Positions 8,285-29,144 of a stretch of DNA of 32,000 bases are shown piece by piece (positions within the stretch are counted from its first letter, which is position 1; each line of letters begins with the position of its first letter). The translations under genes and the position numbers were made by a program. The notes beneath the pieces were generated by a model. The model searched no databases and was not told the origin of the DNA. It saw only the letters and a program-made list of their open reading frames with translations. The stretch is from Tannockella kyphosi. GTDB lineage: Bacteria > Bacillota_I > Bacilli_A > Erysipelotrichales > Coprobacillaceae. The stretch lies in assembly GCF_021054785.1 (NCBI RefSeq), contig NZ_CP088239.1:1170001-1202000 (forward strand), written 5' to 3'.

Positions 8285-9562
8285 CTATTCGTTATCCATT
8301 TTGTTAGCTACTAATACAAATGCTCCCCAGATTACTACAGCGATAACTAAGTTAACTGCTGCAAGTAAAGCTGCTGCAAATGAACCACCAGTTGCTAAGA
8401 ATGCATATAATACTGGAGGAATAACCCAAGGTACTACTACATGTACGAAAGGAACTAATCCTGCTGCAGTTGCTGCATAAGCGATGATTGTTAATACGAT
8501 TGGTACTAACATCCAAGGAATGAAGTAGATTGGGTTAAGCACGATTGGCATACCGAATACTACTGGTTCATTGATGTTGAATACACCCATTGGTGCTGAC
8601 ATAGTAGCTACTGCTCTAGAATCTGCACGTTTTGAGAAAATGAAGATTGCGATGATTAAAGCGATTGTACATCCAGCTCCACCCATCCATACATAAGCAT
8701 CGAAACTACCACGAACCCATACATATTGCATAACTTCTCCAGCTGAAGCAGCTGCTTCATTTGCTAATGTAGCTGATAAGTAAGTACCATCTAATAATGC
8801 TCCTAATACGTTAGTTCCGTGAATTCCGAAGAACCAGAATAATTGTACTGCGATTACTACGATTAATACTGCACCAATTCCTTGAGAAAGATTTAAGAAA
8901 GGTGTTTGAATATATGTTGCAACTAAATCACCGATAGCTTGACCACCCATGAAAGTAGATACTAAGTAACCAGCTAAACCAGCTACATAAATAGCGATTG
9001 TTCCAGGAATGATTGAAGCAAATGCGTTAGAAACTGCAGGTGGTACTGAATCCGGCATTTTAATAGTAACGTTTGCGATCATTAATTTTGCATAAATGAT
9101 TGAAGTAACTAAACCTACGATTAATGCAGTGAATAAACCATTTGCATTTAAGTAAGCCCAGCTTAATCCACCCCAAGTTTCACCTACGACTTGAGGAGTA
9201 ATAGTAATGAATGCTGAAGTAGCAATTAAACCACCAGCTAATTCATTTACACCATAAACTTTAGATACTTGATATCCTAAAGCAAAGATAAATACAAGTG
9301 AGATTACTGCTAAAGTTCCCCACCATACTAAACCATTAATTCCGATTAGCCATGCAAACATCTCTGCAATACCAGCATCAGGAATATAAGTAGTTGGTAA
9401 ATCTCTAACAAATACGTTTAATAATGTTGCAATAGCACCTGCCATAGTAACAGGCATGATAGCGATGAATGCATCACGAACTGCAACTAAATGTTTTTGA
9501 GAACTTATCTTCGTAGCTAATGGTACGAAATGTTCTTCCATAAAGTTTGAAAATTTTTCCAT
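8285..9562 (-). CDS. PTS transporter subunit EIIC, lactose/cellobiose (Lac) family
   Basis: N-terminus MEKFSNFMEEHFVPLATKISSQKHLVAVRDAFIAIMPVTMAGAIATLLN and about 10 hydrophobic segments. AAGGAGG RBS. Confidence 0.9.
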   Translation of the reverse strand: MEKFSNFMEEHFVPLATKISSQKHLVAVRDAFIAIMPVTMAGAIATLLNVFVRDLPTTYIPDAGIAEMFAWLIGINGLVWWGTLAVISLVFIFALGYQVSKVYGVNELAGGLIATSAFITITPQVVGETWGGLSWAYLNANGLFTALIVGLVTSIIYAKLMIANVTIKMPDSVPPAVSNAFASIIPGTIAIYVAGLAGYLVSTFMGGQAIGDLVATYIQTPFLNLSQGIGAVLIVVIAVQLFWFFGIHGTNVLGALLDGTYLSATLANEAAASAGEVMQYVWVRGSFDAYVWMGGAGCTIALIIAIFIFSKRADSRAVATMSAPMGVFNINEPVVFGMPIVLNPIYFIPWMLVPIVLTIIAYAATAAGLVPFVHVVVPWVIPPVLYAFLATGGSFAAALLAAVNLVIAVVIWGAFVLVANKMDNE

Positions 9563-15259: not shown

Positions 15260-16252
15260 TTATTTTAAGTTTGCTCTTACTAGAATTAATTGAGCTGCAA
15301 TACTAATTGCTATTTCAGCTGGTGTTTCACTTTTAATAGAAATACCTATTGGTGTTGTAATACGACTTATATCTTCTTCATTAAATCCTTTTTCCATTAA
15401 CTTTGCTTGTACTGTTTTAATTTTACTACGACTTCCAACCACTCCGATATAACAAGCAGGTGTTTTTAAAGCAAACTCTTGGACGTATTGATCTCCTAAG
15501 TGACCTCTAGTTACAGCGATAATATAATCATGGTTAGTGACTTGATAATATGCTTGATATTCCATCAATTGTTCATAATGACAAACATTCGTATCAATTG
15601 CATCTGGAAACAACTCTTTTTTACTAAAGTCTTCGCGATCATCACTAACAATACAACGAAATCCTAAATGTGATAAAACTGGTACTAACTCTTGAGCTAA
15701 ATGTCCTCCACCAAAAATAAAGACACGACTTTTGTTTTCAATCTTGTGGACATAATAGCAATCTTGTCCTACTTTCATTAGACCTGCTTGTAAGTTATTA
15801 CAATCAATTCCTGTTATCCCTATTATTTCATCTTCATAGCAGTATCCCACTTGCATACCATCCATCGATAAAACAAGCCAACCTAATTGATTAGAGACCA
15901 TATGATTTGTTAATGTTTCAATCAAAGAAGCATCTTTTTGATAAGAAATGTAACTGAATAATACATCTACATCTCCTCCACATACCATACCTAAATTTGC
16001 TGATTCCTCAATTCGTAAACGATACTGTTTTAACTCCCCTGTTTTGTTTTGTAAATGTATTTTGGCTAATTCAATTGATTGAAATTCCAACATCCCACCA
16101 CCAATAGTACCACTCATTAACCCATCTTTATCCACTACCATAAATGCTCCCGTAGTTCTAGGTGCACTACCAACATTATCAACAATTGTTACTAACATAC
16201 AATCTTCACTAACATCTAATTTTTTAGTTAACGATCTTATTATTTCTTTCAT
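15260..16252 (-). CDS. XdhC/CoxI-family molybdenum cofactor insertion/maturation chaperone
   Basis: XdhC_CoxI N-domain (VGSAPRTTGAFMVVDKDGLMSGTIGGG) plus a Rossmann-like C-domain (VFIFGGGHLAQELV). The ATG at 16252 follows the upstream stop and a GGGGAAAAAG RBS. Confidence 0.85.
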   Translation of the reverse strand: MKEIIRSLTKKLDVSEDCMLVTIVDNVGSAPRTTGAFMVVDKDGLMSGTIGGGMLEFQSIELAKIHLQNKTGELKQYRLRIEESANLGMVCGGDVDVLFSYISYQKDASLIETLTNHMVSNQLGWLVLSMDGMQVGYCYEDEIIGITGIDCNNLQAGLMKVGQDCYYVHKIENKSRVFIFGGGHLAQELVPVLSHLGFRCIVSDDREDFSKKELFPDAIDTNVCHYEQLMEYQAYYQVTNHDYIIAVTRGHLGDQYVQEFALKTPACYIGVVGSRSKIKTVQAKLMEKGFNEEDISRITTPIGISIKSETPAEIAISIAAQLILVRANLK

Positions 16253-16262
16253 ACTTTTTCCC

Positions 16263-17294
16263 CTATTTCCCGAATCCACAATTCGGGAAAGTACAAATAT
16301 CACAACCTAAACAAAGTCCACCTTCACCTAGTCTATCTATCATTTCTCTATTTATTGGCACATCTGCCATTACTTTTGGTAAAACAAGATCAAAAATAGT
16401 TCGTTTTGCATACATTACACATCCAGGTAACCCCATTATTGGTTTATTATCTTTTGAATATGCCATCAAGAACATTGCTCCTGGTAATACTGGTGCCCCA
16501 TAAGTAATAATAGTAGCTCCACTATTTTTAATAGATAATGGTGTTTTATCATCTGGATCCACACTCATCCCACCAGTACAAATAATCATATCAACACCTT
16601 TATCTAACATATCTTGAATAATAAGGGTTATTTTTTCAAAATCATCATCTACTATTTCATGAAGTACCATTTCTCCACCAAACTCTGCTAGTTTATCTTG
16701 AATAACTGGAGTAAAGGTATCTTGAATACGTTTATGATAAATTTCATTACCTGTTGTGATAACACCATATTTCTTCGTTTGAAAAGGAATCACATTTAGT
16801 AATGGTTCTCCATTAGAAACCTTTACTACTGTTTCTTTTGCCTTTTCCATCTTTTCTTTTTCTATTACCAAAGGAATAATACGAGTTCCTGCAAGTTTGT
16901 CTCCCTTTTTAACAGCAAAACCACCATGTCTAGATGCAATCATCATTTGTCCAAAAGAATTAATAGCGTTTATCCCTTCTTTATGAACACATAACAAACC
17001 ATCACAATTTGCAATCAATTCTATTTTTCCTTCTTTTACTTTTCCAGCAACAATATTACTACCCATTGCTAGTTCCTTAAGAATCTCTGCTGCATCATTT
17101 TCATGTAACATCGTTTCATCATTTTCACAAATATAAATATGATCTTTTCCAACAGACAATAAAACAGGAATATCCTCTTCTTTTATTAGATGCCCTTTTG
17201 AAAAAACAACATCTTTTGTAACCCCTCTTATAATTTGAGTAATATCGTGATATAACACTTGTCCTACTGCATCCACCGTTTTGATACTTTTCAT
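16263..17294 (-). CDS. Molybdopterin-binding (MoCF_BD/MoaB-MogA-like domain) protein with a C-terminal Cys cluster
   Basis: VITTGNEIY...MIICTGGMSVDPDDKTP is a MoCF-binding domain signature. The C-terminus is CLGCDICTFPNC. GGGAGG lies 7 nt before the ATG at 17294. The ATG at 17300 overlaps the upstream TGA and is also possible. Confidence 0.7.
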   Translation of the reverse strand: MKSIKTVDAVGQVLYHDITQIIRGVTKDVVFSKGHLIKEEDIPVLLSVGKDHIYICENDETMLHENDAAEILKELAMGSNIVAGKVKEGKIELIANCDGLLCVHKEGINAINSFGQMMIASRHGGFAVKKGDKLAGTRIIPLVIEKEKMEKAKETVVKVSNGEPLLNVIPFQTKKYGVITTGNEIYHKRIQDTFTPVIQDKLAEFGGEMVLHEIVDDDFEKITLIIQDMLDKGVDMIICTGGMSVDPDDKTPLSIKNSGATIITYGAPVLPGAMFLMAYSKDNKPIMGLPGCVMYAKRTIFDLVLPKVMADVPINREMIDRLGEGGLCLGCDICTFPNCGFGK

Positions 17295-17296
17295 TT

Positions 17297-18376
17297 TCAT
17301 TCCTCCCTAATAAAAGCATTCCTTATTTTTTCTTCTACCTTTAATGCTTGTAAATATCGTTCTTGATGTTTTTCAATTGCTTCTTGCGTGCAACATTTAC
17401 GAAGACTTGCTTCAAATCTTTGTTGTAAGGATACCCTTAATGTTCCTTGTACTAATTTATCTGCATAATACAAAATCATTGCCTCATCTAATAATGCATC
17501 ACCTTTGATATCATGATGAAGTTGGATAATAGACCCTAATTGAATATATCCTAAATGATATAATTGTTCCTTTGCTAGTAATGGATGATCTTTGCCATGA
17601 TGACGCATCATATCATGTAACAAAGCACTAGTTAGAAGCAATTCTTTATCCAATGAACATTGATCTTTTAATAATTCATATAATTCAAGGCAAACACGTT
17701 GTACCTCATAGCTATGTTCTATGACTACTTGTGGTGTTTTACATTGAAAGAATATTTGTTCTATTTCTTGATGACTAGGGATTGAATCCCTTTTTTTATT
17801 TATTGCAACAAAGTTCCACTTCTTTTCCTCTATTTCCACTACACTAAGAGTTCCATAATCAACACGTGGCATTCCATCTTTACAAGGATCTAAATTTTCT
17901 AATTTATGTACTAACGCTCGTATTAATCCATCATGAATAACAAGCACTAAGTCACTAGATTTATTTAAAAGTAAGAACTGTATTGTTTTGATAAGGCGGT
18001 TTACACCATCTTCTAATGTCTCCCCATTACTAGGGACTATCGACCAATCTTTTCCTCTTTGTTGATAAAGAGTTGGATATAGTTCTTGAATTTGTTGGAA
18101 TGTCTTTCCTTCAAAATCTCCCATATCTAATTCTTGCAAAGAAACAATTGGTTGATATTTTTGTTGAACAGAAACCATTTCTAAAGCACTTTGATAACTC
18201 CTTGCTAGATTACTACAATAAATAGTGTCGATGTTTGAAAAACAATCTTTCCATACTCTTACTTGTTCTTTCCCTTCTTTTGATAAAAACAAGTCTGTTT
18301 GACTACCTATACAGATTTTCTTTCCCTCTTTAAATAGTGGTTTTCCATGACGAATTAAATAAACATATCTTTTCAT
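17297..18376 (-). CDS. Fusion protein: histidine-phosphatase (PGM/CobC-like) N-domain + HD-domain phosphohydrolase C-domain
   Basis: N-domain: YLIRHGKP (RHG motif), SNLARSYQSA, VIHDGLIRAL. C-domain: ALLHDMMRHHGKDH...QLHHD...YYADKL, the HD metal-binding pattern resembling YqeK-type HD hydrolases. Confidence 0.7.
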   Translation of the reverse strand: MKRYVYLIRHGKPLFKEGKKICIGSQTDLFLSKEGKEQVRVWKDCFSNIDTIYCSNLARSYQSALEMVSVQQKYQPIVSLQELDMGDFEGKTFQQIQELYPTLYQQRGKDWSIVPSNGETLEDGVNRLIKTIQFLLLNKSSDLVLVIHDGLIRALVHKLENLDPCKDGMPRVDYGTLSVVEIEEKKWNFVAINKKRDSIPSHQEIEQIFFQCKTPQVVIEHSYEVQRVCLELYELLKDQCSLDKELLLTSALLHDMMRHHGKDHPLLAKEQLYHLGYIQLGSIIQLHHDIKGDALLDEAMILYYADKLVQGTLRVSLQQRFEASLRKCCTQEAIEKHQERYLQALKVEEKIRNAFIREE

Positions 18377-18389
18377 TTTTCATCCCTCA

Positions 18390-19232
18390 CTACTGCTTTA
18401 TAATAATTGCAGTTCCATGCAAATCACAAAGTTCTACTAATACCAATGATCCATATTCTTTTTCATAATCCTCAACTGCTTTTTTAACTCCTTGAAATCT
18501 TTGATTCCCATAATCATGTAATAAAATAATAGCTCCTTTATTCATTCTTTTAATAAACCACTTTAATCCTTCATAAGTAGGTGTATAAAGATCTACATCA
18601 ATACTAACTAAAGCAAAGGTTTCTTCTATCCCGATTGTTGTATCTGGAAAATAACCTTCTTTTATAATTACCTGACTAGGATTCGATAATTTTTCTAAAA
18701 CCATTTGAATACTAGTATTTTGAAATTCTTCTTTATATGCTTTTGATAATCCTGTTTCATTTTCCATTTGAATATCTCGTTCATCAAAACCATTAAATGT
18801 ATCAAATAAATATAATTTTCTTCTAGGAAAAACTGCATTTAATACTTTAGAGAATTCTCCTTGAAAAACTCCTAATTCCGCTACTGCTCCTTCGATATCT
18901 TTTAATCTATCTTTTAATTTGATAGTAAAAGCACTACGAATATCAATTGCTTCTATTAATTTGGTTATTTCAATAATTTCTTTATTATAACCATTATGAT
19001 GTAATTGTTTGATTATTTCAGTTTGACGTTCTATTCCTGTAACAGCCACTAAAATAACATCAATAGGCAATAATAATGCTTCTTCCATTGTATAAAGAGG
19101 AATATTTTTAATCATTGTTTGTTCTTTCTTTGCATTATCACCAAAACCTATTAAATGATAATGTTTTTGATTGATGAGAGGTAATACTGCTTGACCCATC
19201 TGTCCTGCTCCAAAAATTAATAAATTTTTCAT
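18390..19232 (-). CDS. TylF/MycF-family class I SAM-dependent O-methyltransferase with an N-terminal Rossmann-like extension
   Basis: ELGVFQGEFS...LYLFDTFNGF...SIDVDLYTPTYEGL...ILLHDY matches the macrocin-O-methyltransferase family pattern. The N-terminus is LLIFGAGQMGQAV. The ATG at 19232 follows AGGGGGA and the upstream TAA. Confidence 0.65.
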   Translation of the reverse strand: MKNLLIFGAGQMGQAVLPLINQKHYHLIGFGDNAKKEQTMIKNIPLYTMEEALLLPIDVILVAVTGIERQTEIIKQLHHNGYNKEIIEITKLIEAIDIRSAFTIKLKDRLKDIEGAVAELGVFQGEFSKVLNAVFPRRKLYLFDTFNGFDERDIQMENETGLSKAYKEEFQNTSIQMVLEKLSNPSQVIIKEGYFPDTTIGIEETFALVSIDVDLYTPTYEGLKWFIKRMNKGAIILLHDYGNQRFQGVKKAVEDYEKEYGSLVLVELCDLHGTAIIIKQ

Positions 19233-19233
19233 T

Positions 19234-20160
19234 TTATTCCCCCTTACCAAAATGCTTTGTGAATGATTGTTCACTAAAAGCAGTAACTTCTTCTATATAC
19301 ATTTCATATTTATTTAATAATTCTTTTCCTTCTTTAGTAAGACTACTTGTACCTCCATATTCTCCTCCTTGCCTTCTTTCCAACAAAGAAAAACCAAAAG
19401 CCTGTTCCATTTCTTTAATCATTATCCAAGCTTTACTATAAGAAATACCAATTTTATCACATGCATCTTTTACTGTTCCTGTATATTCAATAGCTTGTAA
19501 TAAAACAGTAGAGGTTTTATCTAATATCTTTTTTTCTCTAATAATAGAAATATCAATAATTGGTCTTAATAACTGTTCACTATGCATTTTTACTAAACGT
19601 TCATAATCACCCATCGTATCAGCATCTCTTAAAACACCTTCATCATCTACTTGTAAAATATCAATTTTAGGACAACATTCATAAATCATTGCTTTTAAAC
19701 CATCATTTCTTTTACAAGCGATTATTTTTGGTAATATTTTATTAGAAAATAGGATTGGATGACCATCTTCATTATCACAAACAGGTTTAATAAAATCGAC
19801 ATTCGTTTGCATCAATCTACGTACTGTACCTACCGTAAACAAAGGAACATCTACTGGTGTAAAGAAAACTCGATCACATTTATCTAATAGAAATGAAAAT
19901 CCCATTTTTGCTGAATCAGACATTTGTGTTGTTTCATAGGAATCATTACGAATATAAATAACACCTTGTTTTGCAATATGTTTTTCTAATTCTGCTGCCC
20001 GATATCCTGTTACTACCACAATTGGTGATACTCCCGCTTGTTGAAAGTTTGCAATAATTCTTTTTACAATCGTAATAGAACCCATTTTCATCATTGGTTT
20101 AAATTCACCCATTCTACTAGACATCCCAGCTGCTACAATCACAGCTCCTGTTCTTTGCAT
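19234..20160 (-). CDS. Fusion: MocA/MobA-like molybdenum cofactor nucleotidyl(cytidylyl)transferase + ModE-N-type winged-helix DNA-binding domain
   Basis: The N-terminus AVIVAAGMSSRMGEFKPMMKMG is the MobA-like NTP-transferase P-loop. C-terminal residues about 200-290 read GTVKDACDKIGISYSKAWIMIKEMEQAFGFSLLERRQGGEYGGTSSLTKEGKELL. These align with E. coli ModE ISQGAKDAGISYKSAWDAINEMNQ...VERATGGKGGGGAVLT. No Mop/TOBE domain is present. Confidence 0.8.
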   Translation of the reverse strand: MQRTGAVIVAAGMSSRMGEFKPMMKMGSITIVKRIIANFQQAGVSPIVVVTGYRAAELEKHIAKQGVIYIRNDSYETTQMSDSAKMGFSFLLDKCDRVFFTPVDVPLFTVGTVRRLMQTNVDFIKPVCDNEDGHPILFSNKILPKIIACKRNDGLKAMIYECCPKIDILQVDDEGVLRDADTMGDYERLVKMHSEQLLRPIIDISIIREKKILDKTSTVLLQAIEYTGTVKDACDKIGISYSKAWIMIKEMEQAFGFSLLERRQGGEYGGTSSLTKEGKELLNKYEMYIEEVTAFSEQSFTKHFGKGE

Positions 20161-20184: not shown

Positions 20185-20208
20185 CGAATTATATTTTTTT
20201 ACAATTCG
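20185..20208. promoter_or_regulatory. 9-N6-9 inverted repeat, candidate operator for the ModE-type domain
   Basis: CGAATTATA-tttttt-TACAATTCG, with half-sites identical at 8 of 9 positions. It occupies the spacer and -10 of the operon promoter. Confidence 0.4.
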
Positions 20209-20216
20209 CTTATCAA
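20188..20216 (-). promoter_or_regulatory. Sigma-A promoter of the Moco maturation / molybdate uptake operon
   Basis: On the minus strand: TTGATA (20216-20211), 17 nt of spacer, TATAAT (20193-20188), about 28 nt upstream of the ATG at 20160, which has an AGGAGGGG RBS. Confidence 0.6.
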
Positions 20217-20219
20217 AGC

Positions 20220-20251
20220 ATAGCATCATAATATTTCTATTATGATGCTAT
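20220..20251 (-). terminator. Hairpin downstream of hydroxylase module 1 (terminator or processing site)
   Basis: 13-bp perfect inverted repeat atagcatcataat / attatgatgctat with a 6-nt loop. Only a short U-tract follows on the minus strand. Confidence 0.45.
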
Positions 20252-20264
20252 TATTTTTTATTCT

Positions 20265-22616
20265 TTAGATAAGTGTTTCCACAAAATCTCTTACCATTGT
20301 ACGTAAGGATTCTACTTTATAACCATTATCTCTCATTACCATGACATTTTCCACTGCCACTTCACTAGCTTTTAACGCTAATTCTTTGCTTGGAACTTGT
20401 CCTTTTAATACTTCTTCTACTGCACTTGCACGGAATGGAACTGGTGCAACTCCACCAAATACCAAACGAATATCTTCAATAGTTCCATCTACAACTTTAA
20501 TATCACTAGCAACTGCTACTAATGCAAAGTCAATTGCTTTACGTAAACGGAATTTAGCATAATCACTCTTCCATCCATCTCTTGAAGGAATATGAATTGC
20601 TTTTACTAATTCTCCTCTTTCAAGTTTATATTCTGGACGTAATTTATCGCTAAAGAATTCTACTCCAGATAATGTACGTACTGTTGTTTCTACAGTTACA
20701 TCTAAAGCTAATAACATATTGGCCATATCAGAAGCGTTCGAAGAATAACATCCACAGTTCATACAACGGCTTGCTTCTACTGCTGCTTCCATTTCTGTTA
20801 ATGAACTAGAATCTTCTACATCTAAACAACGTTTTTCTACTGGTGTATCCACTAATTGAGATGCTTTTACTAATTTTACTCCTTCAGGATCAAATGTTAA
20901 GAAAGCTTCTTTTTCAATTTCTAAAACCATTGGCATACCCATGTATTTTGTCATATTTCTAGCTGCATTTCCTCCAGCACGAACTGCTTGAATAGCTAAA
21001 GAAGGTCCTGTTGCAACATCACCACCAGCATAAACACCAGCATGACGTGTATCATTATGTTCTCCAACTTCAATTAATCCTCTTACTGATTGAATTTCAT
21101 CTTTAAAATGATCTCCTAAGAAATCCAAATCAACTCTTTGACCTGTTGCTAGGATAATACTTGGTGTTTCAATAAATGAAACATCTGCTTCATCATATAC
21201 AGGACTAAAACGTCCTTTTTCATCAAATACATGAAGACATTTTTTAGTTTCTAATCCTAATACTTTATCACCTTCATAACGAACTTTGTTTAATCCAAGT
21301 CCATTTAAGATAATAACACCTTCTTCTAATGCACGATCTACTTCTTCTTTTGATGCTGGCATTTGTTCTCTTTGTTCTAGACAAACTAAAGTAACTTTCT
21401 TAGCTCCCAAACGTTTTGCTGTTAATGCTACGTCCATCGCAACATTCCCACCACCACATACTAATACTTCTTCGTCAATTTTACTTGTCATCCATTGTTT
21501 TACTTCAACTAAGAAATTTAAACCAAATTGAGTTAAATTTTCACCATCAATTCCTAAAATAGGTTGTTTCCATGCTCCTGTATCGATGAACACTGTATCA
21601 AAAGTTTCTTCTACTTCTTCAAAAGAAATATCTTCTCCTACTGTTGTATTAAATTTAAATACAACTCCCATACCTTCAATAGCACTATTATATTCACGCA
21701 TTAATGCTTTTGGTAAACGATATTCTGGTATACCGTACATTAATACCCCACCAGCTTCTGGCATTTTTTCAAAAATTGTTACTGCATGTCCCATTTTTCT
21801 TAAATAGAATGCGGCTGCTAATCCTGCTGGACCACTACCTACAATCCCAACTGATTTTCCTGATTCACTACTTGGTGCAGGGAAATAAGTTGATTTATTT
21901 TTCAAGATATAATCACCTAATGTACGTTCAACTGCATGAATATTAACAGAATCACCATGGTTACTTTGATTACATTTTGTTTGACAAGTATGAGGACAAA
22001 CTCTACTTGTTAACATTGGCATTGGGTTTGCACGTAATATTATTTTGGCAGCTCCATCCCAATCACCTTGTCTAATTTTTTCCATATATCCAGAGATATC
22101 AGTTCCAGCTGGACATTCATTACTACATTTTGTACGAGCTGTTTTCATACCTCCAAAAATACTATGATAACGATTATCTCCTAATACTGCATAGCATAAA
22201 TCCCCATCTTTACGTGCACAATCAAGGCGGCCACCTTGGTTATGCGGATAACGATAATACCAACAACGTACATCTTGGCAAATATTACCACCAATAGTCG
22301 CTGCATTACGGATAATAGGTGTTGCAACGCTGTTAGCAGCTTTGCGTAAACCTGTTGGAACAGATTCATCATCAGATATTTCTGACAATGTATTCATTGC
22401 ACCTAGTACGATAGAACCATCTTCATTAACTGTAGTTTCTTTAGCACCTATTGTTTTAAGATCAACTACAACATCAGGAGTTTTTTCTAATATGGCTGAT
22501 TTCATCAAGCCAACAAGATCCGTACCTCCAGCAATGGAAGTCCCACTTTTTGACACTTTGATAAGTTCTGAGGCTTCTTCAAATGTCTTTGCTTCTTTAT
22601 GTTCAAACTTTCTCAT
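20265..22616 (-). CDS. Module 1 flavoprotein: CoxM/XdhB-type FAD-binding subunit with an inserted four-Cys loop and GltD-like NAD(P)H:FAD/Fe-S oxidoreductase module
   Basis: N-terminal part: FAD_binding_5-like (SIAGGTDL, ATIGGN). Central part: GltD-like CSNECPAGTDI...NPMPMLTSRVCPHTCQTKC, GIVGSGPAGLAAAFYL, VCGGGNVAMDVA, YAGGDV. C-terminal part: ASDMANMLLALD plus a CO_deh_flav_C-like tail (VFGGVAPVPFRA). Confidence 0.85.
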   Translation of the reverse strand: MRKFEHKEAKTFEEASELIKVSKSGTSIAGGTDLVGLMKSAILEKTPDVVVDLKTIGAKETTVNEDGSIVLGAMNTLSEISDDESVPTGLRKAANSVATPIIRNAATIGGNICQDVRCWYYRYPHNQGGRLDCARKDGDLCYAVLGDNRYHSIFGGMKTARTKCSNECPAGTDISGYMEKIRQGDWDGAAKIILRANPMPMLTSRVCPHTCQTKCNQSNHGDSVNIHAVERTLGDYILKNKSTYFPAPSSESGKSVGIVGSGPAGLAAAFYLRKMGHAVTIFEKMPEAGGVLMYGIPEYRLPKALMREYNSAIEGMGVVFKFNTTVGEDISFEEVEETFDTVFIDTGAWKQPILGIDGENLTQFGLNFLVEVKQWMTSKIDEEVLVCGGGNVAMDVALTAKRLGAKKVTLVCLEQREQMPASKEEVDRALEEGVIILNGLGLNKVRYEGDKVLGLETKKCLHVFDEKGRFSPVYDEADVSFIETPSIILATGQRVDLDFLGDHFKDEIQSVRGLIEVGEHNDTRHAGVYAGGDVATGPSLAIQAVRAGGNAARNMTKYMGMPMVLEIEKEAFLTFDPEGVKLVKASQLVDTPVEKRCLDVEDSSSLTEMEAAVEASRCMNCGCYSSNASDMANMLLALDVTVETTVRTLSGVEFFSDKLRPEYKLERGELVKAIHIPSRDGWKSDYAKFRLRKAIDFALVAVASDIKVVDGTIEDIRLVFGGVAPVPFRASAVEEVLKGQVPSKELALKASEVAVENVMVMRDNGYKVESLRTMVRDFVETLI

Positions 22617-25590: not shown

Positions 25591-26244
25591 ATGACACAAC
25601 CAACTAAAAAACAAATAACACATGAAAAGATACTAACAAGTGCCATCTACTTATTTTCAATTTATGGTTACGAAGGCACTACCACTCGTATGCTTTCAAA
25701 AGAATCTGGATATAATATTTCAACTATTTTCCATCATTTTGAAAACAAAGAAGGTTTATATATTGCCGCCATGAATCATATGGCCCAAGAAATGAATAGC
25801 CATTTACTCCCAACAACGATCAAAGTAAATAAACGACTTGAAGAAGAGTGTTCTATTGAAGAAGCATGGGAATTAATTGAAGAATTCATTACACTTCTTG
25901 TTATGACATTATCTAGTCCTACTCAAAAGAATACATTCTTTCTACTAATCAGAGAACAAACTAGTCCTCCAAAAGGAGACTTCCCACTCTCTCGAGTAAT
26001 CTATGACAATGTAGAACATCCAATTAAAAACTTACTTCAAAGAATATACCCAGATATAACTCATACTACCCTTGCTTTGCATGCTAGAATGATTACTGGT
26101 GGAATCATTTCCCAAGTAGAACACCCAGTGTTTTTACGCTGGATGTTAGGTCTACCAGACGACGCTGATATAAAACCTCGTGTTTGGGAAAAAGTAAAAG
26201 ATTTATGTATGATATATATAAATACCGATTTAAATAACGATTAA
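25591..26244 (+). CDS. TetR/AcrR-family transcriptional regulator
   Basis: The N-terminal HTH region ILTSAIYLFSIYGYEGTTTRMLSKESGYNISTIFHHFENKEGLY is classic TetR_N. Confidence 0.9.
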   Translation: MTQPTKKQITHEKILTSAIYLFSIYGYEGTTTRMLSKESGYNISTIFHHFENKEGLYIAAMNHMAQEMNSHLLPTTIKVNKRLEEECSIEEAWELIEEFITLLVMTLSSPTQKNTFFLLIREQTSPPKGDFPLSRVIYDNVEHPIKNLLQRIYPDITHTTLALHARMITGGIISQVEHPVFLRWMLGLPDDADIKPRVWEKVKDLCMIYINTDLNND

Positions 26245-26705
26245 GCGTGTGGTGGAATACCAAGCGCTTTTTTTACTAATGGAATACCTGTACATAATCC
26301 AATATTTTGTGATAACCAAGTTAAGAATAATGATAATGGATAAGATGCTACTACTGATGCTACATAGAAATCTTGGTAACCAGGAACATCTTTCATTCCC
26401 CACCAAGTCATGAATGAACTCATAATAGTAGCCATAATTAATGCCACTAATACAGTAGATACTAATTGATGTTTAATATCTCTTCTGTCTAATTTAAATA
26501 AATCACCAAACTTATTCCCTAAAGGAGCAATTGGTAAGAATGTCATTAAAATAAACCCTATAATAACACCTAATACATAACTACTTGCAAAACTAGATAA
26601 TGTTAAACCTGTTCCATTTGCAATAGGTACAATTGTATTTAAGAAAATATTTAAAATCAACGATACCCACGCATTTAATAATACATCAAACTTTGTTATT
26701 TTCAT
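26241..26705 (-). CDS. Small integral membrane protein (about 4 TM, two-repeat appearance; possibly DUF2798-like)
   Basis: 154 aa with four hydrophobic segments. GGGAGG lies 7 nt before the ATG at 26705. Its stop overlaps the TetR stop. Confidence 0.55.
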   Translation of the reverse strand: MKITKFDVLLNAWVSLILNIFLNTIVPIANGTGLTLSSFASSYVLGVIIGFILMTFLPIAPLGNKFGDLFKLDRRDIKHQLVSTVLVALIMATIMSSFMTWWGMKDVPGYQDFYVASVVASYPLSLFLTWLSQNIGLCTGIPLVKKALGIPPHA

Positions 26706-26722
26706 TTGTCTGCCTCCCATGA

Positions 26723-26777: not shown

Positions 26778-29144
26778 TTATTTTACTGCTAAAATATTAC
26801 GAATTACTAAAGCTTTGATTTCAGTAATTTTATAATTATTATGTTCCATTGCAATTGCATCTTTAATAGCAAGAGCTCCAGCACTTTCAGCTACTTCTTC
26901 ACTAATCGCTTTACCTTTTAAGAAAGCTTCTACTTCATCTAATTTATATGGTACTGGTGCAACTCCACCTAATACTAATTTAGCATCTTCAATAACTCCA
27001 TCTACTACTTTGAAAGCAGAAGATAAACTTACGATTGCAAAATCCATCCCATCACGGACACGGAATTTATCATAACTAGAAGTATATCCTTCTAATACTG
27101 GTACTTGAATTTCAGTTACTAATTCACCATGTTCTAACATATCTTTTGTTTTTAGTTTTGTAGTAAAGAAGTCAACAGCTTTGATTTCTTTTTTAGTAGT
27201 AACAATTGTTCCATCTAACATCACTAATACTGGTGAAATATCAGAAGCATTTACTGAGTAACATCCACAATTCATACAACGTTTTGCTTCTTTTGAAGCT
27301 AATTCAAGAGATAATGATTTTTCATCTTCATCCACTAATGTACGACTAGCTACAGGAAGTTCTTCTAACTTACAAGATTCTTCTACTTTTACACCTTCTA
27401 CATCAAAAGTCTTATAACCTTTTTCAGATGCTTCACGTTTGATTGGATATCCCATTTTTGCACTCATAGAATGAGCTGCTAAGTTACCTGCATGAATTGC
27501 ACGAATTGCAATATTAGGTCCTGTAACAACATCCCCACCTGCAAAGAATTTTTCATTTTTAGTTTGATAAGTTTCTTCATCTACTTCTAATAAACCACGT
27601 TCTGATTTAATTTGAGAAGCGAACTCATCACCTAAGAAGTCTACGTCTACACGTTGACCTGTTGCTAAGATAATACTATCTGATGTAAATACAGTAGTTT
27701 CATCATGATCATATACTGGTGCAAAACGATTTTTTTCATCAAAAACACTTACGCATTTCATTGATTCTAAACCACTTACTTTTCCATCGGCATCTTTGAT
27801 AACACCTTTTAGACCCCAACCATTTTCAATTTCAATACCTTCTTCTAAAGCTCTTGCAATTTCTTCTTTTGTTGCAGGCATTGCTTCTCTTGATTCAAGA
27901 CATACTAATTTAACACTCTTAGCTCCTAAACGTCTTGCTGTTAATGCTACGTCCATCGCAACATTACCACCACCACAAACTAATACGTTTTCACCAGTAG
28001 CTTTTTGTAAGAATGTATTTACATCTTGTAAGAAGTCTAAACCAAATTGAGTTAATTCTTCTCCTGTAATACCTAATACTGGTTGTTTCCAAGCACCTGT
28101 ACCAAAGAATACAGTATCAAAACGCCCTTCCACTTCTTCCATTGATATTTCTTTACCAACAGTAGTATTCATTTCAAAAGTAACTCCCATACCTTCCAAA
28201 GCACTTGCATATCCTTCTACAATATCCTTAGGTAAACGATAATGAGGAATACCATACATTAATACCCCACCAGCTTTTTCATGAGAATCAATCACAGTAA
28301 CACTATGTCCTTGACTTCTTAAATAATAAGCAGCAGTTAAACCACCAGGACCAGCTCCAATAATACCAACAGATTTACCTGTTTCAGCTTTTGGTGCTAC
28401 ATAGAATTTTTCTTTATTTTCTAAAATATAATCTCCTAATGTACGTTCCACACAGTGAATAGCTACGCTATCACCATTTTTATCATGGTTACATCTGTCT
28501 TCACAAGGATGTGGACAAATTCTTGAAGTACACATTGGCATTGGGTTTACACGCATAATTATTTTTGCAGCTTCATCCCAGTTCCCTTTTCTAATTTCAC
28601 CCATATAAGAGGAAACATCAGTTCCAGCAGGACAACCTTTTGTACAAGCACTAGTTACAATTTTCATACCACCAAATACAGAATGATAACGATTTTCTCC
28701 TAATACTGCAAAACATTCTTCTCCACCTTTTTGTTGACATACCATTTTCCCACCAACATCTTCAGGATAACGATAATACCAACAACGAACATCTTGACAA
28801 ACATTCCCACCAATAGTTGCAGAATTACGAACTAATGGAGTTGCTACCGATTTTGCAGCTTGGCTTAACGCTGGTGCCCCAGCTAATAATTCTTCTGATT
28901 TTTCTAAGCAACCTAACTTTGTGATAGCACCAATTTTAATAGTCCCATCTTGTGCAGTTACATAAGATCCACCATCTACTTTTCTTAAACTTACTAATTC
29001 TTCTGGATATTTTGTTAAAATATCACTTTTTAATTCAAAAATTAAATCTGTACCACCAGAAACTGGTACACTATTTTCATTTGCTTTTATTATTTCTGCA
29101 GCTTCATCAAATGATTTTGCAGATTTGTATCCAAATTTTTTCAT
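26778..29144 (-). CDS. Module 2 flavoprotein: same CoxM-FAD / four-Cys loop / GltD-like mosaic as module 1
   Basis: Collinear with 20265-22616: VSGGTDL, ATIGGNVCQDVRCWYYRYP, CTKGCPAGTDV, IIGAGPGGLTAAYYL, VCGGGNVAMDVA, FAGGDV, CMNCGCYS, ASDISPVLVMLD, LGGVAPVPYK. Confidence 0.85.
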   Translation of the reverse strand: MKKFGYKSAKSFDEAAEIIKANENSVPVSGGTDLIFELKSDILTKYPEELVSLRKVDGGSYVTAQDGTIKIGAITKLGCLEKSEELLAGAPALSQAAKSVATPLVRNSATIGGNVCQDVRCWYYRYPEDVGGKMVCQQKGGEECFAVLGENRYHSVFGGMKIVTSACTKGCPAGTDVSSYMGEIRKGNWDEAAKIIMRVNPMPMCTSRICPHPCEDRCNHDKNGDSVAIHCVERTLGDYILENKEKFYVAPKAETGKSVGIIGAGPGGLTAAYYLRSQGHSVTVIDSHEKAGGVLMYGIPHYRLPKDIVEGYASALEGMGVTFEMNTTVGKEISMEEVEGRFDTVFFGTGAWKQPVLGITGEELTQFGLDFLQDVNTFLQKATGENVLVCGGGNVAMDVALTARRLGAKSVKLVCLESREAMPATKEEIARALEEGIEIENGWGLKGVIKDADGKVSGLESMKCVSVFDEKNRFAPVYDHDETTVFTSDSIILATGQRVDVDFLGDEFASQIKSERGLLEVDEETYQTKNEKFFAGGDVVTGPNIAIRAIHAGNLAAHSMSAKMGYPIKREASEKGYKTFDVEGVKVEESCKLEELPVASRTLVDEDEKSLSLELASKEAKRCMNCGCYSVNASDISPVLVMLDGTIVTTKKEIKAVDFFTTKLKTKDMLEHGELVTEIQVPVLEGYTSSYDKFRVRDGMDFAIVSLSSAFKVVDGVIEDAKLVLGGVAPVPYKLDEVEAFLKGKAISEEVAESAGALAIKDAIAMEHNNYKITEIKALVIRNILAVK

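Follow-up and report, generated by a model that had tools for sequence, protein, structure and literature searches.

The canonical route to molybdopterin cytosine dinucleotide (MCD), a form of the molybdenum cofactor (Moco), is that of Escherichia coli, in which the cytidylyltransferase MocA and a chaperone of the XdhC/PaoD type serve enzymes of the xanthine dehydrogenase family. To our knowledge, this pathway needs neither a methyltransferase nor a phosphatase nor an HD hydrolase. We analyzed a 32,000 nt stretch of the genome of Tannockella kyphosi (contig NZ_CP088239.1, positions 1,170,001 to 1,202,000; below, the window), in which a MocA and an XdhC, as in the canonical comparison, share one operon with Moco biosynthesis genes. 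However, the module in the window adds a TylF-type methyltransferase (MT) and a protein in which a histidine phosphatase (HP) is fused to an HD hydrolase (HP-HD). The best explanation as a whole, to which we assign a probability of roughly 0.6, is that MT and HP-HD, both intact and transcribed together, form part of a conserved accessory module with a tailoring mechanism. That the module, consisting of MocA, MT, HP, HD and XdhC, serves the maturation or turnover of the MCD cofactor in one way or another is very likely.

Two further described systems come close. The gene neighborhood of the Desulfovibrio aldehyde oxidoreductase, represented by the NCBIfam model NF045665, resembles the window in that the MocA and HD halves both match and the XdhC partner is of the NF045664 type. 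In the window, however, the two halves reside on separate proteins, HP is attached to HD, and MT lies between MocA and HP-HD. The second system is the ucd (urolithin C dehydroxylase) operon of Enterocloster, which is induced by its substrate and is adjoined by TylF genes (Pidgeon et al., 2025; PMC11760930), so that the same MT family is found beside, and co-induced with, an MCD-dependent enzyme of the xanthine dehydrogenase family. The enzyme, UcdCFO, was inactive in E. coli despite the supply of mocA and xdhC (PMC11760930). The TylF genes receive a passing mention in that paper, which assigns them no function and draws no tie to the cofactor, MocA, HP-HD or XdhC. In a literature search, no paper turned up that addresses what the MocA-HD fusion (DVU_1551) does, nor one on HP-HD or on a methyltransferase in Moco biology. 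An earlier reading of the window from its letters (the sequence-only reading) had stated that the two genes have no known role there; this holds insofar as no published function was found, but the MocA-HD combination is catalogued (NF045665) and TylF genes beside ucd have been mentioned (PMC11760930). As far as we found, the five-part module and its distribution are apparently undescribed in the literature, with the MocA-HD fusion and the TylF neighbors as partial precedents.

The genes of the operon start, their domains and the putative promoter are as follows:

20188..20216, minus strand: promoter-like site TTGATA-17-TATAAT, 5' of MocA (consensus scan, 11/12; a pattern match only)
19234..20160, minus strand: protein with a MocA-like CTP:molybdopterin cytidylyltransferase domain and a ModE/LysR-type helix-turn-helix (HTH) domain (MocA-HTH fusion), first gene of the operon (Pfam NTP_transf_3, 3e-28; HTH_1)
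19232-18390, minus strand: TylF-type methyltransferase (MT), 280 aa (open reading frame and Pfam)
18948..19232, minus strand: N-terminal Rossmann-like domain of MT, about residues 1-95, of the PglD_N / C2185-like_N type (Pfam, TIGR03570)
18390..18947, minus strand: catalytic domain of MT, a TylF/MycF/NovP-type metal- and S-adenosylmethionine (SAM)-dependent O-methyltransferase (Pfam, Foldseek, profile alignment)
18376-17297, minus strand: histidine phosphatase-HD fusion (HP-HD), 359 aa (open reading frame and Pfam)
17783..18376, minus strand: HP domain (branch 1), about residues 1-198 (Pfam His_Phos_1, alignment, fold match)
17297..17782, minus strand: HD phosphohydrolase domain followed by a helical C-terminal extension that is conserved, together about residues 199-359 (Pfam HD, NF045665)
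16263..17300, minus strand: MoCF_biosynth (molybdopterin-binding) protein, 345 aa (Pfam MoCF_biosynth, 2e-24)
15260..16303, minus strand: XdhC-family Moco chaperone (Pfam XdhC_C and XdhC_CoxI; NF045664 XdhC_rel_AOR, 283 bits)

The key link between these genes comes from the HD domain. NF045665, a model of 359 positions named 'DVU_1551 family NTP transferase', comprises a MocA-like domain and an HD domain; the MocA of the window covers its positions 2-196 (182.7 bits, E 1e-53) and the HD half of HP-HD its positions 164-357 (110.3 bits, E 1e-31). Therefore, in other lineages the HD domain is part of the MocA polypeptide. As members of NF045665 the window proteins themselves were rejected, since they stay below its cutoff of 315 bits: the domains are homologous, but split over two genes with MT and HP between them. 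A search of 5.8 billion proteins yielded about 55 with both HP and HD, five of which are triple fusions, in two orders, MocA-HP-HD (P0009, P0014) and HP-MocA-HD (P0037, P0047, P0055). Such permuted fusions argue that the three domains act on one molecule.

To see how HP-HD is embedded elsewhere, we gathered 80 HP-HD loci, each from the genome of a different species, with an alignment of 11 HP-HD sequences, and mapped them by tblastn, using as queries the window proteins as well as accessory proteins of further loci. Most belong to Oscillospiraceae, Lachnospiraceae and other Clostridia, but the gene also occurs in Acetobacterium wieringae, Stecheria intestinalis, Clostridium magnum, Petroclostridium, Desulfotomaculum, Sulfurospirillum and Desulfobacterium. 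MocA was found within 300 bp of HP-HD at 63 of the 80 loci and within 2 kb at 71, XdhC within 2 kb at 53, a Mo enzyme within 10 kb at 51, and a TylF-type MT within 2 kb at 25; at 18 loci a MoCF_biosynth homologue is no more than 300 bp away. HP-HD thus accompanies MocA almost constantly, with MT as a third member that many loci lack.

MT was taken as a starting point as well. Four MT homologues had been selected solely by the length of the surrounding sequence, and all four adjoin HP, HD, MocA or XdhC. In Klebsiella indica (L123), the order Fer2, MoCoBD, FAD-GltD, MocA, MT, HP-HD, XdhC reproduces the layout of the window. A gut contig that is very common has MT divergent from MocA, XdhC and HP-HD and followed by Crp and a ucd-like operon, and at locus L126 MT is divergent from HP(-HD), MocA and MoCF. 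Locus L125 has a split form (HD and HP genes at 1315-1806 and 8866-9453), with a stand-alone HD protein (163 aa) beside MocA-HTH and XdhC, and a stand-alone histidine phosphatase (195 aa) directly after MT at the end of a hydroxylase operon.

A metagenome scan added 79 MT loci, which were dereplicated at 85% identity, and for neighbor counts at least 3 kb of flanking sequence was required on each side. Among the 19 MT-seeded clusters with such long flanks, 12 adjoin MocA, HP-HD or XdhC and two adjoin other Mo genes. Across 63 clusters the recurrent orders were MocA, MT, HP-HD (11 cases), XdhC followed by MT (4), an enzyme gene followed by MT (5), and MT divergent from HP-HD (HPHD<MT>, 3); in about 15 of the 63, MT leads the enzyme operon, divergent from MocA followed by HP-HD. 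In a quick maximum-likelihood tree, every major MT branch contains Mo-linked members. The only coherent group without such a link is a small, well-supported clade in nucleotide-sugar clusters, next to genes for UDP-GlcNAc 2-epimerase, a PglD-like acetyltransferase, a DegT aminotransferase and glycosyltransferases; three other Mo-unlinked loci are isolated genes in unrelated contexts. The small clade suggests that MT descended from methyltransferases of nucleoside diphosphate (NDP) sugars. The co-occurrence of the two genes with mocA, xdhC and the hydroxylases, which the sequence-only reading had suggested as a check, is thus positive for HP-HD, by its proximity to MocA, as well as for MT, with 14 of the 19 long-flank clusters beside Mo genes.

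Because HP-HD recurs next to MocA or fused with it, and because MT turns up, in distant taxa and several independent orders, next to MocA, HP-HD, XdhC or the operon of the Mo enzyme, MT and HP-HD belong to the biology of MCD and the Mo hydroxylases and are not passengers. That they were merely recombined into the operon by chance is scarcely credible: the island is indeed accessory in the window organism, with XdhC and HP-HD not found in two genomes of the same genus, but the association recurs in more than 60 species-level loci, in many gene orders and in gene fusions, across taxa that span Firmicutes groups (Clostridia-type, Erysipelotrichaceae), Klebsiella, Sulfurospirillum and Desulfobacterium-type genomes, so that comparative data contradict this explanation.

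In the order to which the window organism belongs, the module is rare. The two same-genus genomes (G001 and G002, 98% and 94% complete) yielded neither XdhC nor HP-HD, and therefore the whole Mo island (11209-31956) is regarded as accessory in the window organism. XdhC is present in only 4 of 37 relatives, the window genome counted, and a full-length HP-HD in only 2 of about 460 other genomes sampled from the relatives of the window organism and its phylum; both adjoin MocA-HTH, without MT. A sample of 399 Clostridia genomes contained a single full-length MT (G638), with an HD domain 2 kb upstream, which are too few positives for an analysis of co-occurrence.

Also on tandem copies of MT there are parallels between loci. 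Pairs of TylF-type MT genes are present on the human-gut contigs L132, L134, L135 and L137, next to MocA/HP-HD and a hydroxylase operon, and they match the 'two macrocin-O-methyltransferases' beside the Enterocloster ucd operon. As at that operon, loci L124 and L132-L137 show tandem MT pairs and Crp beside a ucd-like operon.

The layout of the window suggests a single transcript. The minus-strand genes are packed in the order MocA-HTH, MT, HP-HD, MoCF_biosynth protein, XdhC, MOSC, MoaA and ModABC, which agrees with the sequence-only reading, according to which the two genes lie between the MocA fusion and the molybdopterin-binding/XdhC/MOSC/MoaA genes. Its description that each gene starts right after the preceding stop codon is essentially correct as well: the MocA stop codon TAA (19236-19234) is separated from the MT start codon ATG by 1 nt, with a GGGGG Shine-Dalgarno sequence 5' of MT; the distance from the MT stop codon to the ATG of HP-HD is 13 nt, with GAGGGA preceding the start; and the HP-HD stop codon and the start of the MoCF_biosynth gene share a 4 nt overlap, ATGA (17300-17297). 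The promoter-like site (20216-20188) is housed in a gap of 104 nt after the second of two hydroxylase modules, and as judged from its pattern it is probably the start of the MocA-MT-HPHD-...-MoaA transcript. Between MocA and MoaA, the window scan showed no terminator-like site on the minus strand, and a scan of the window with Rfam matched no family, the Moco riboswitch included. The MocA-HTH protein also matches TIGR03310 (116.8 bits) and the ModE repressor domain (NCBIfam). Between the second hydroxylase module and the promoter-like site, overlapping the promoter region, there is a perfect palindrome with a 14 bp stem (ATAGCATCATAATA...TATTATGATGCTAT) at 20220-20251, which could terminate the upstream operon or serve as the operator that the ModE-like HTH of the MocA fusion binds.

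The domain composition of MT given by the sequence-only reading, a macrocin-O-methyltransferase with an additional N-terminal Rossmann-like domain, was borne out by matches above the Pfam cutoffs to TylF (PF05711; residues 111-260, 56.4 bits, cutoff 23) and PglD_N (residues 3-69, 25.7 bits, cutoff 23.4, E 1.7e-5). MT also matches Methyltransf_24 in Pfam. The N-terminal domain, with the motif LLIFGAGQMGQAV at residues 4-16 and with GxGxxG and GDN motifs that are invariant among the homologues, is matched by the N-terminal part of TIGR03570 (NeuD/PglB/VioB; E 1.1e-7) and weakly, in profile comparisons, by VioB (7txp) and a UDP-quinovosamine dehydrogenase domain (3nkl); it is a candidate nucleotide-binding domain. 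More than 1,100 homologues have the same 280 aa architecture, at 43-53% identity. A single fusion of MT to a longer protein was found, P0183, in which a generic class I methyltransferase domain is placed in front; it was dismissed as a Rosetta-stone link, since between the extra domain and the class I methyltransferase in the DVU_155x cassette there is no significant relationship.

The predicted structure of the catalytic domain points in the same direction as the sequence. The AF2 model of MT (pLDDT 92) has as its nearest structure SpnH (4ce0; E 5e-10, TM 0.54/0.70), and further close folds are CalS11, a TDP-rhamnose 3'-O-methyltransferase, NovP and MycF (all by Foldseek). Motifs invariant in an alignment of 16 MT homologues are GxGxxG, GDN, AELG, LYLFDTF, S-(L/I)-D-x-D-L-Y, L-L-H-D-Y and D-L-H-G. 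In profile alignments with SpnH and MycF, SIDVDLY and LLHDY of MT fall opposite DGDLY/DGDSY and DDY. Specifically, D212-x-D214 corresponds to their DGD, and their DD pair corresponds to H239-D240, which is invariant in the MT family. The DxD...DD residues are presumably the metal ligands and the catalytic base in MycF and NovP. On account of this alignment, the catalytic machinery of MT appears retained, with a family-wide change of Asp to His. MT is a member of the sugar O-methyltransferase family, with close relatives in NDP-sugar pathways. It shares with TylF, MycF, NovP, SpnH and CalS11 the Pfam family, the fold, the SAM motif and the putative metal and base motif DxD...(D/H)D, but it differs from them by the extra PglD_N-like Rossmann domain, by the His in place of the first Asp of DD, and by its context, which is Moco maturation instead of the tailoring of macrolide or aminocoumarin glycosides as in the TylF/MycF/NovP group.

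HP-HD is intact as well. Its N-terminal half matches His_Phos_1 (PF00300; residues 5-194, 112 bits, 3e-32) and its C-terminal half matches HD (PF01966; residues 218-308, 34.1 bits, cutoff 22, 3.8e-8). Both the RHG (R9-H10-G11) and the H148-D149-G150 motif are present in the HP domain. Among 29 homologues, R9, H10, R59 and H148 are invariant and E82 is conserved in at least 90%, which is the catalytic set of branch 1; likewise, the residues of the HD metal motif, H221, H254-D255, H264, H287 and D306, are invariant, and H288, next to H287, is also conserved. Family-specific invariant or near-invariant residues are C22, R320-F321 and C328. Thus, the predicted catalytic residues are conserved in all three domains, MT, HP and HD. 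A complex prediction for HP-HD and MT gave a median score of 0.14 against a mark of 0.32, which is uninformative in either direction.

The sequence-only reading had called HP-HD a fusion of a PGM/CobC-like phosphatase and a YqeK-like HD hydrolase. The phosphatase, its RHG and HDG motifs and the HD motif were found as described, but the names of the two halves denote resemblance. In the predicted model (pLDDT 95), PhoE is the nearest fold neighbor of the HP half (Z 23.9, VIA-align), and CobC, RosC and the riboflavin-pathway phosphatase HFP match as well. As a CobC alpha-ribazole phosphatase it was rejected: with TIGR03162 it scores 92.6 bits, below the equivalog cutoff of 162.9, and it is thus CobC-like without being a member. 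CobC, RosC and HFP, which remove phosphate late in their pathways, provide the best sequence and fold matches of HP and have the same catalytic residues; HP differs in its fusion to HD, in an invariant Cys in a CIGxxD segment, and in that no cobalamin or flavin genes are nearby. For the HD half, VIA-align gave Z values of 12.8 with the C-terminal domain of GppA, 12.0 with BH1327 (2o08) and 10.8 with YqeK (8wmy), middling values in a range (about 10.8-12.8) that is common for helical domains; whole-protein Foldseek comparisons are dominated by the HP domain. By sequence, the HD part had no match in the PDB below E 0.02, and no YqeK model was among the NCBIfam matches of HP-HD. In view of the middling Z values and the lack of a significant PDB match, 'YqeK-like' is best taken as a resemblance and not as a membership. 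HP-HD has in common with YqeK, the HD-type Ap4A (diadenosine tetraphosphate) hydrolase encoded beside NadD, the HD fold, the full H-HD-H-H-D set and a nucleotidyltransferase as gene partner, but this partner is MocA instead of NadD, and the sequence does not significantly match models or structures of YqeK.

Taken together, MCD cofactor maturation in the anaerobes that bear the module probably has extra steps. By analogy with the relatives of the individual enzymes, we tentatively propose a tailoring route, which in its specific form, including a tailored cofactor as its product, is possible rather than probable. MocA would join CMP to Mo-molybdopterin, and HD, as a metal-dependent phosphohydrolase, would be the hydrolytic partner of MocA, acting on a pyrophosphate-linked species, either a by-product or a wrong dinucleotide. 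HP, an enzyme of the CobC/RosC/HFP kind, would take the terminal phosphate off a cofactor intermediate, and MT, which has an N-terminal domain of the nucleotide-sugar type, would treat the CDP-linked pyranopterin as an analogue of an NDP-sugar and methylate a hydroxyl, possibly one that HP uncovers. In view of the split form at L125, and of the lack of MT wherever MocA-HD or HP-HD occurs alone, MT and HP may be a pair of tailoring enzymes that optionally supplements a core of MocA and HD. The product of this MocA/MT/HP/HD line would be handed over by the cognate XdhC. It is a somewhat doubtful extension that many enzymes of the xanthine dehydrogenase family in gut and sediment anaerobes use such a tailored (e.g., methylated) cofactor and not plain MCD. 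If true, it would account for the fact that these enzymes, even in Klebsiella, come along with a MocA-MT-HPHD-XdhC set of their own, and it could explain why expression in E. coli failed when mocA and xdhC alone were supplied.

Several observations weigh against the interpretation preferred here. Five of the 19 long-flank MT clusters adjoin no Mo gene. MT is absent from two thirds of the HP-HD loci, and five whole genomes with HP-HD, but without a local MT, carry no MT anywhere; MT is therefore not essential for MCD synthesis as such. The chemistry of the cofactor also sets limits, because MCD has few free hydroxyls (ribose 2' and 3') that MT could target. The solved structures of Desulfovibrio MOP show ordinary MCD, and the MOP gene neighborhood holds the MocA-HD form; hence, the HD step need not change the cofactor. 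Finally, heterologous expression in E. coli may have failed for many other reasons.

Among the other explanations, the one that survives best, although we consider it unlikely, reverses the direction of the pathway. In this case, the substrate of HD would be MCD or a dinucleotide that is damaged or wrong; its cleavage would give CMP and molybdopterin phosphate, HP would dephosphorylate the latter, and MT would cap the reactive product with a methyl group, for quality control or recovery of Mo. Three activities, pyrophosphatase-like, phosphomonoesterase and methyltransferase, fit the three formal steps, and pairs of a nucleotidyltransferase and an HD domain that reverses or repairs its work are found elsewhere (e.g., GlnD, RelA/SpoT). 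The product would be comparable to urothione, which is dephosphorylated and S-methylated, by thiopurine methyltransferase. Indeed, the synthesis of urothione, the end of human Moco catabolism, requires a methyltransferase (PMC9607355), and this is therefore a formal precedent for the methylation of a Moco-derived pterin. The change from DDY to HDY at the second metal position might, speculatively, suit a softer metal and a thiol substrate, but the TylF family is known for O-methylation only. Furthermore, the genes are part of operons for biosynthesis and for the enzymes, and fusions with MocA occur in several domain orders, which is more typical of consecutive than of opposing steps, and the co-induction of the TylF genes with the enzyme (PMC11760930) fits production and not disposal.

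Alternatively, MT might act on the organic substrates or products of the hydroxylases, e.g., by O-methylation of a phenol or catechol, with HP-HD in general nucleotide housekeeping, YqeK- or CobC-like, and all of them linked by mere co-regulation. Catechol O-methyltransferases are among the lower-ranked fold matches of MT, the TylF genes of Enterocloster flank a catechol-acting enzyme and are induced by its catechol (PMC11760930), and in about 20 clusters MT is the first or last gene of the enzyme operon and not of the cofactor operon. However, MT is equally often found inside the MocA/HP-HD/XdhC operon, and its enzyme partners are very diverse, including MOP-type aldehyde oxidoreductases, three-subunit hydroxylases and the FAD-GltD fusion type. 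As for HP-HD, its fusion to MocA, a score below the CobC equivalog cutoff, the lack of a match to a YqeK equivalog model, and the absence of cobalamin and NAD genes nearby in the mapped loci all argue against housekeeping. Altogether, this explanation is quite improbable.

Several other features were observed in the mapped HP-HD loci. The accessory cassette of MOP-type aldehyde oxidoreductases, DVU_155x/TrsS, is present in many of them. At L039 (15053-18384) and L044, genes for a HypF-like and an AIRS-domain (HypE/SelD-like) protein lie directly 3' of MOSC, in a MOP-type cluster that also carries MocA, HP-HD, XdhC, MoCF and MoaA; from these genes one might suspect ligand chemistry (S, Se or CN) at the Mo site. 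Class I methyltransferases unrelated to MT (Methyltransf_25/23/11) recur as well, e.g., at L041 (11043-11759), L039 (5515-6246) and L042 (18882-19505), and one of them sits between HP-HD and XdhC. A methyltransferase of either type is present within 10 kb at 36 of the 52 HP-HD loci with long flanks.

The genes of the Mo island read on the minus strand from 31956 to 11209, apart from a divergent TetR gene (25591-26244, plus strand). Upstream of MocA, the island comprises two Mo-hydroxylase modules, which are paralogous and consist of three genes each, for a 2Fe-2S subunit, a MoCoBD subunit and a flavoprotein of about 785 aa with a GltD-like insert. In these flavoproteins (20265-22616 and 26778-29144), the insert, a GltD-like NAD(P)H/Fe-S module (Fer4_20 and Pyr_redox_2), is located between the FAD_binding_5 and CO_deh_flav_C halves. 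The same flavoprotein type accompanies the module in K. indica and in several Lachnospiraceae loci (L055-L057, L060, L061). Between the two hydroxylase modules, adjoined by the TetR gene, an open reading frame of 159 aa (26241-26720, minus strand) matches no Pfam or NCBIfam model.

The MCD-dependent hydroxylases of gut anaerobes carry out conversions of purines, urolithins, nicotinate and aldehydes; they attract increasing interest, but their expression in other hosts is difficult. Should maturation require MT and HP-HD, co-expression of the two could make these hydroxylases accessible. If they make a modified cofactor, a new chemical variant would join the molybdenum cofactor family. Even a conservative reading defines a testable five-part module, of which the K. 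indica copy is a natural enterobacterial version that should be genetically tractable.

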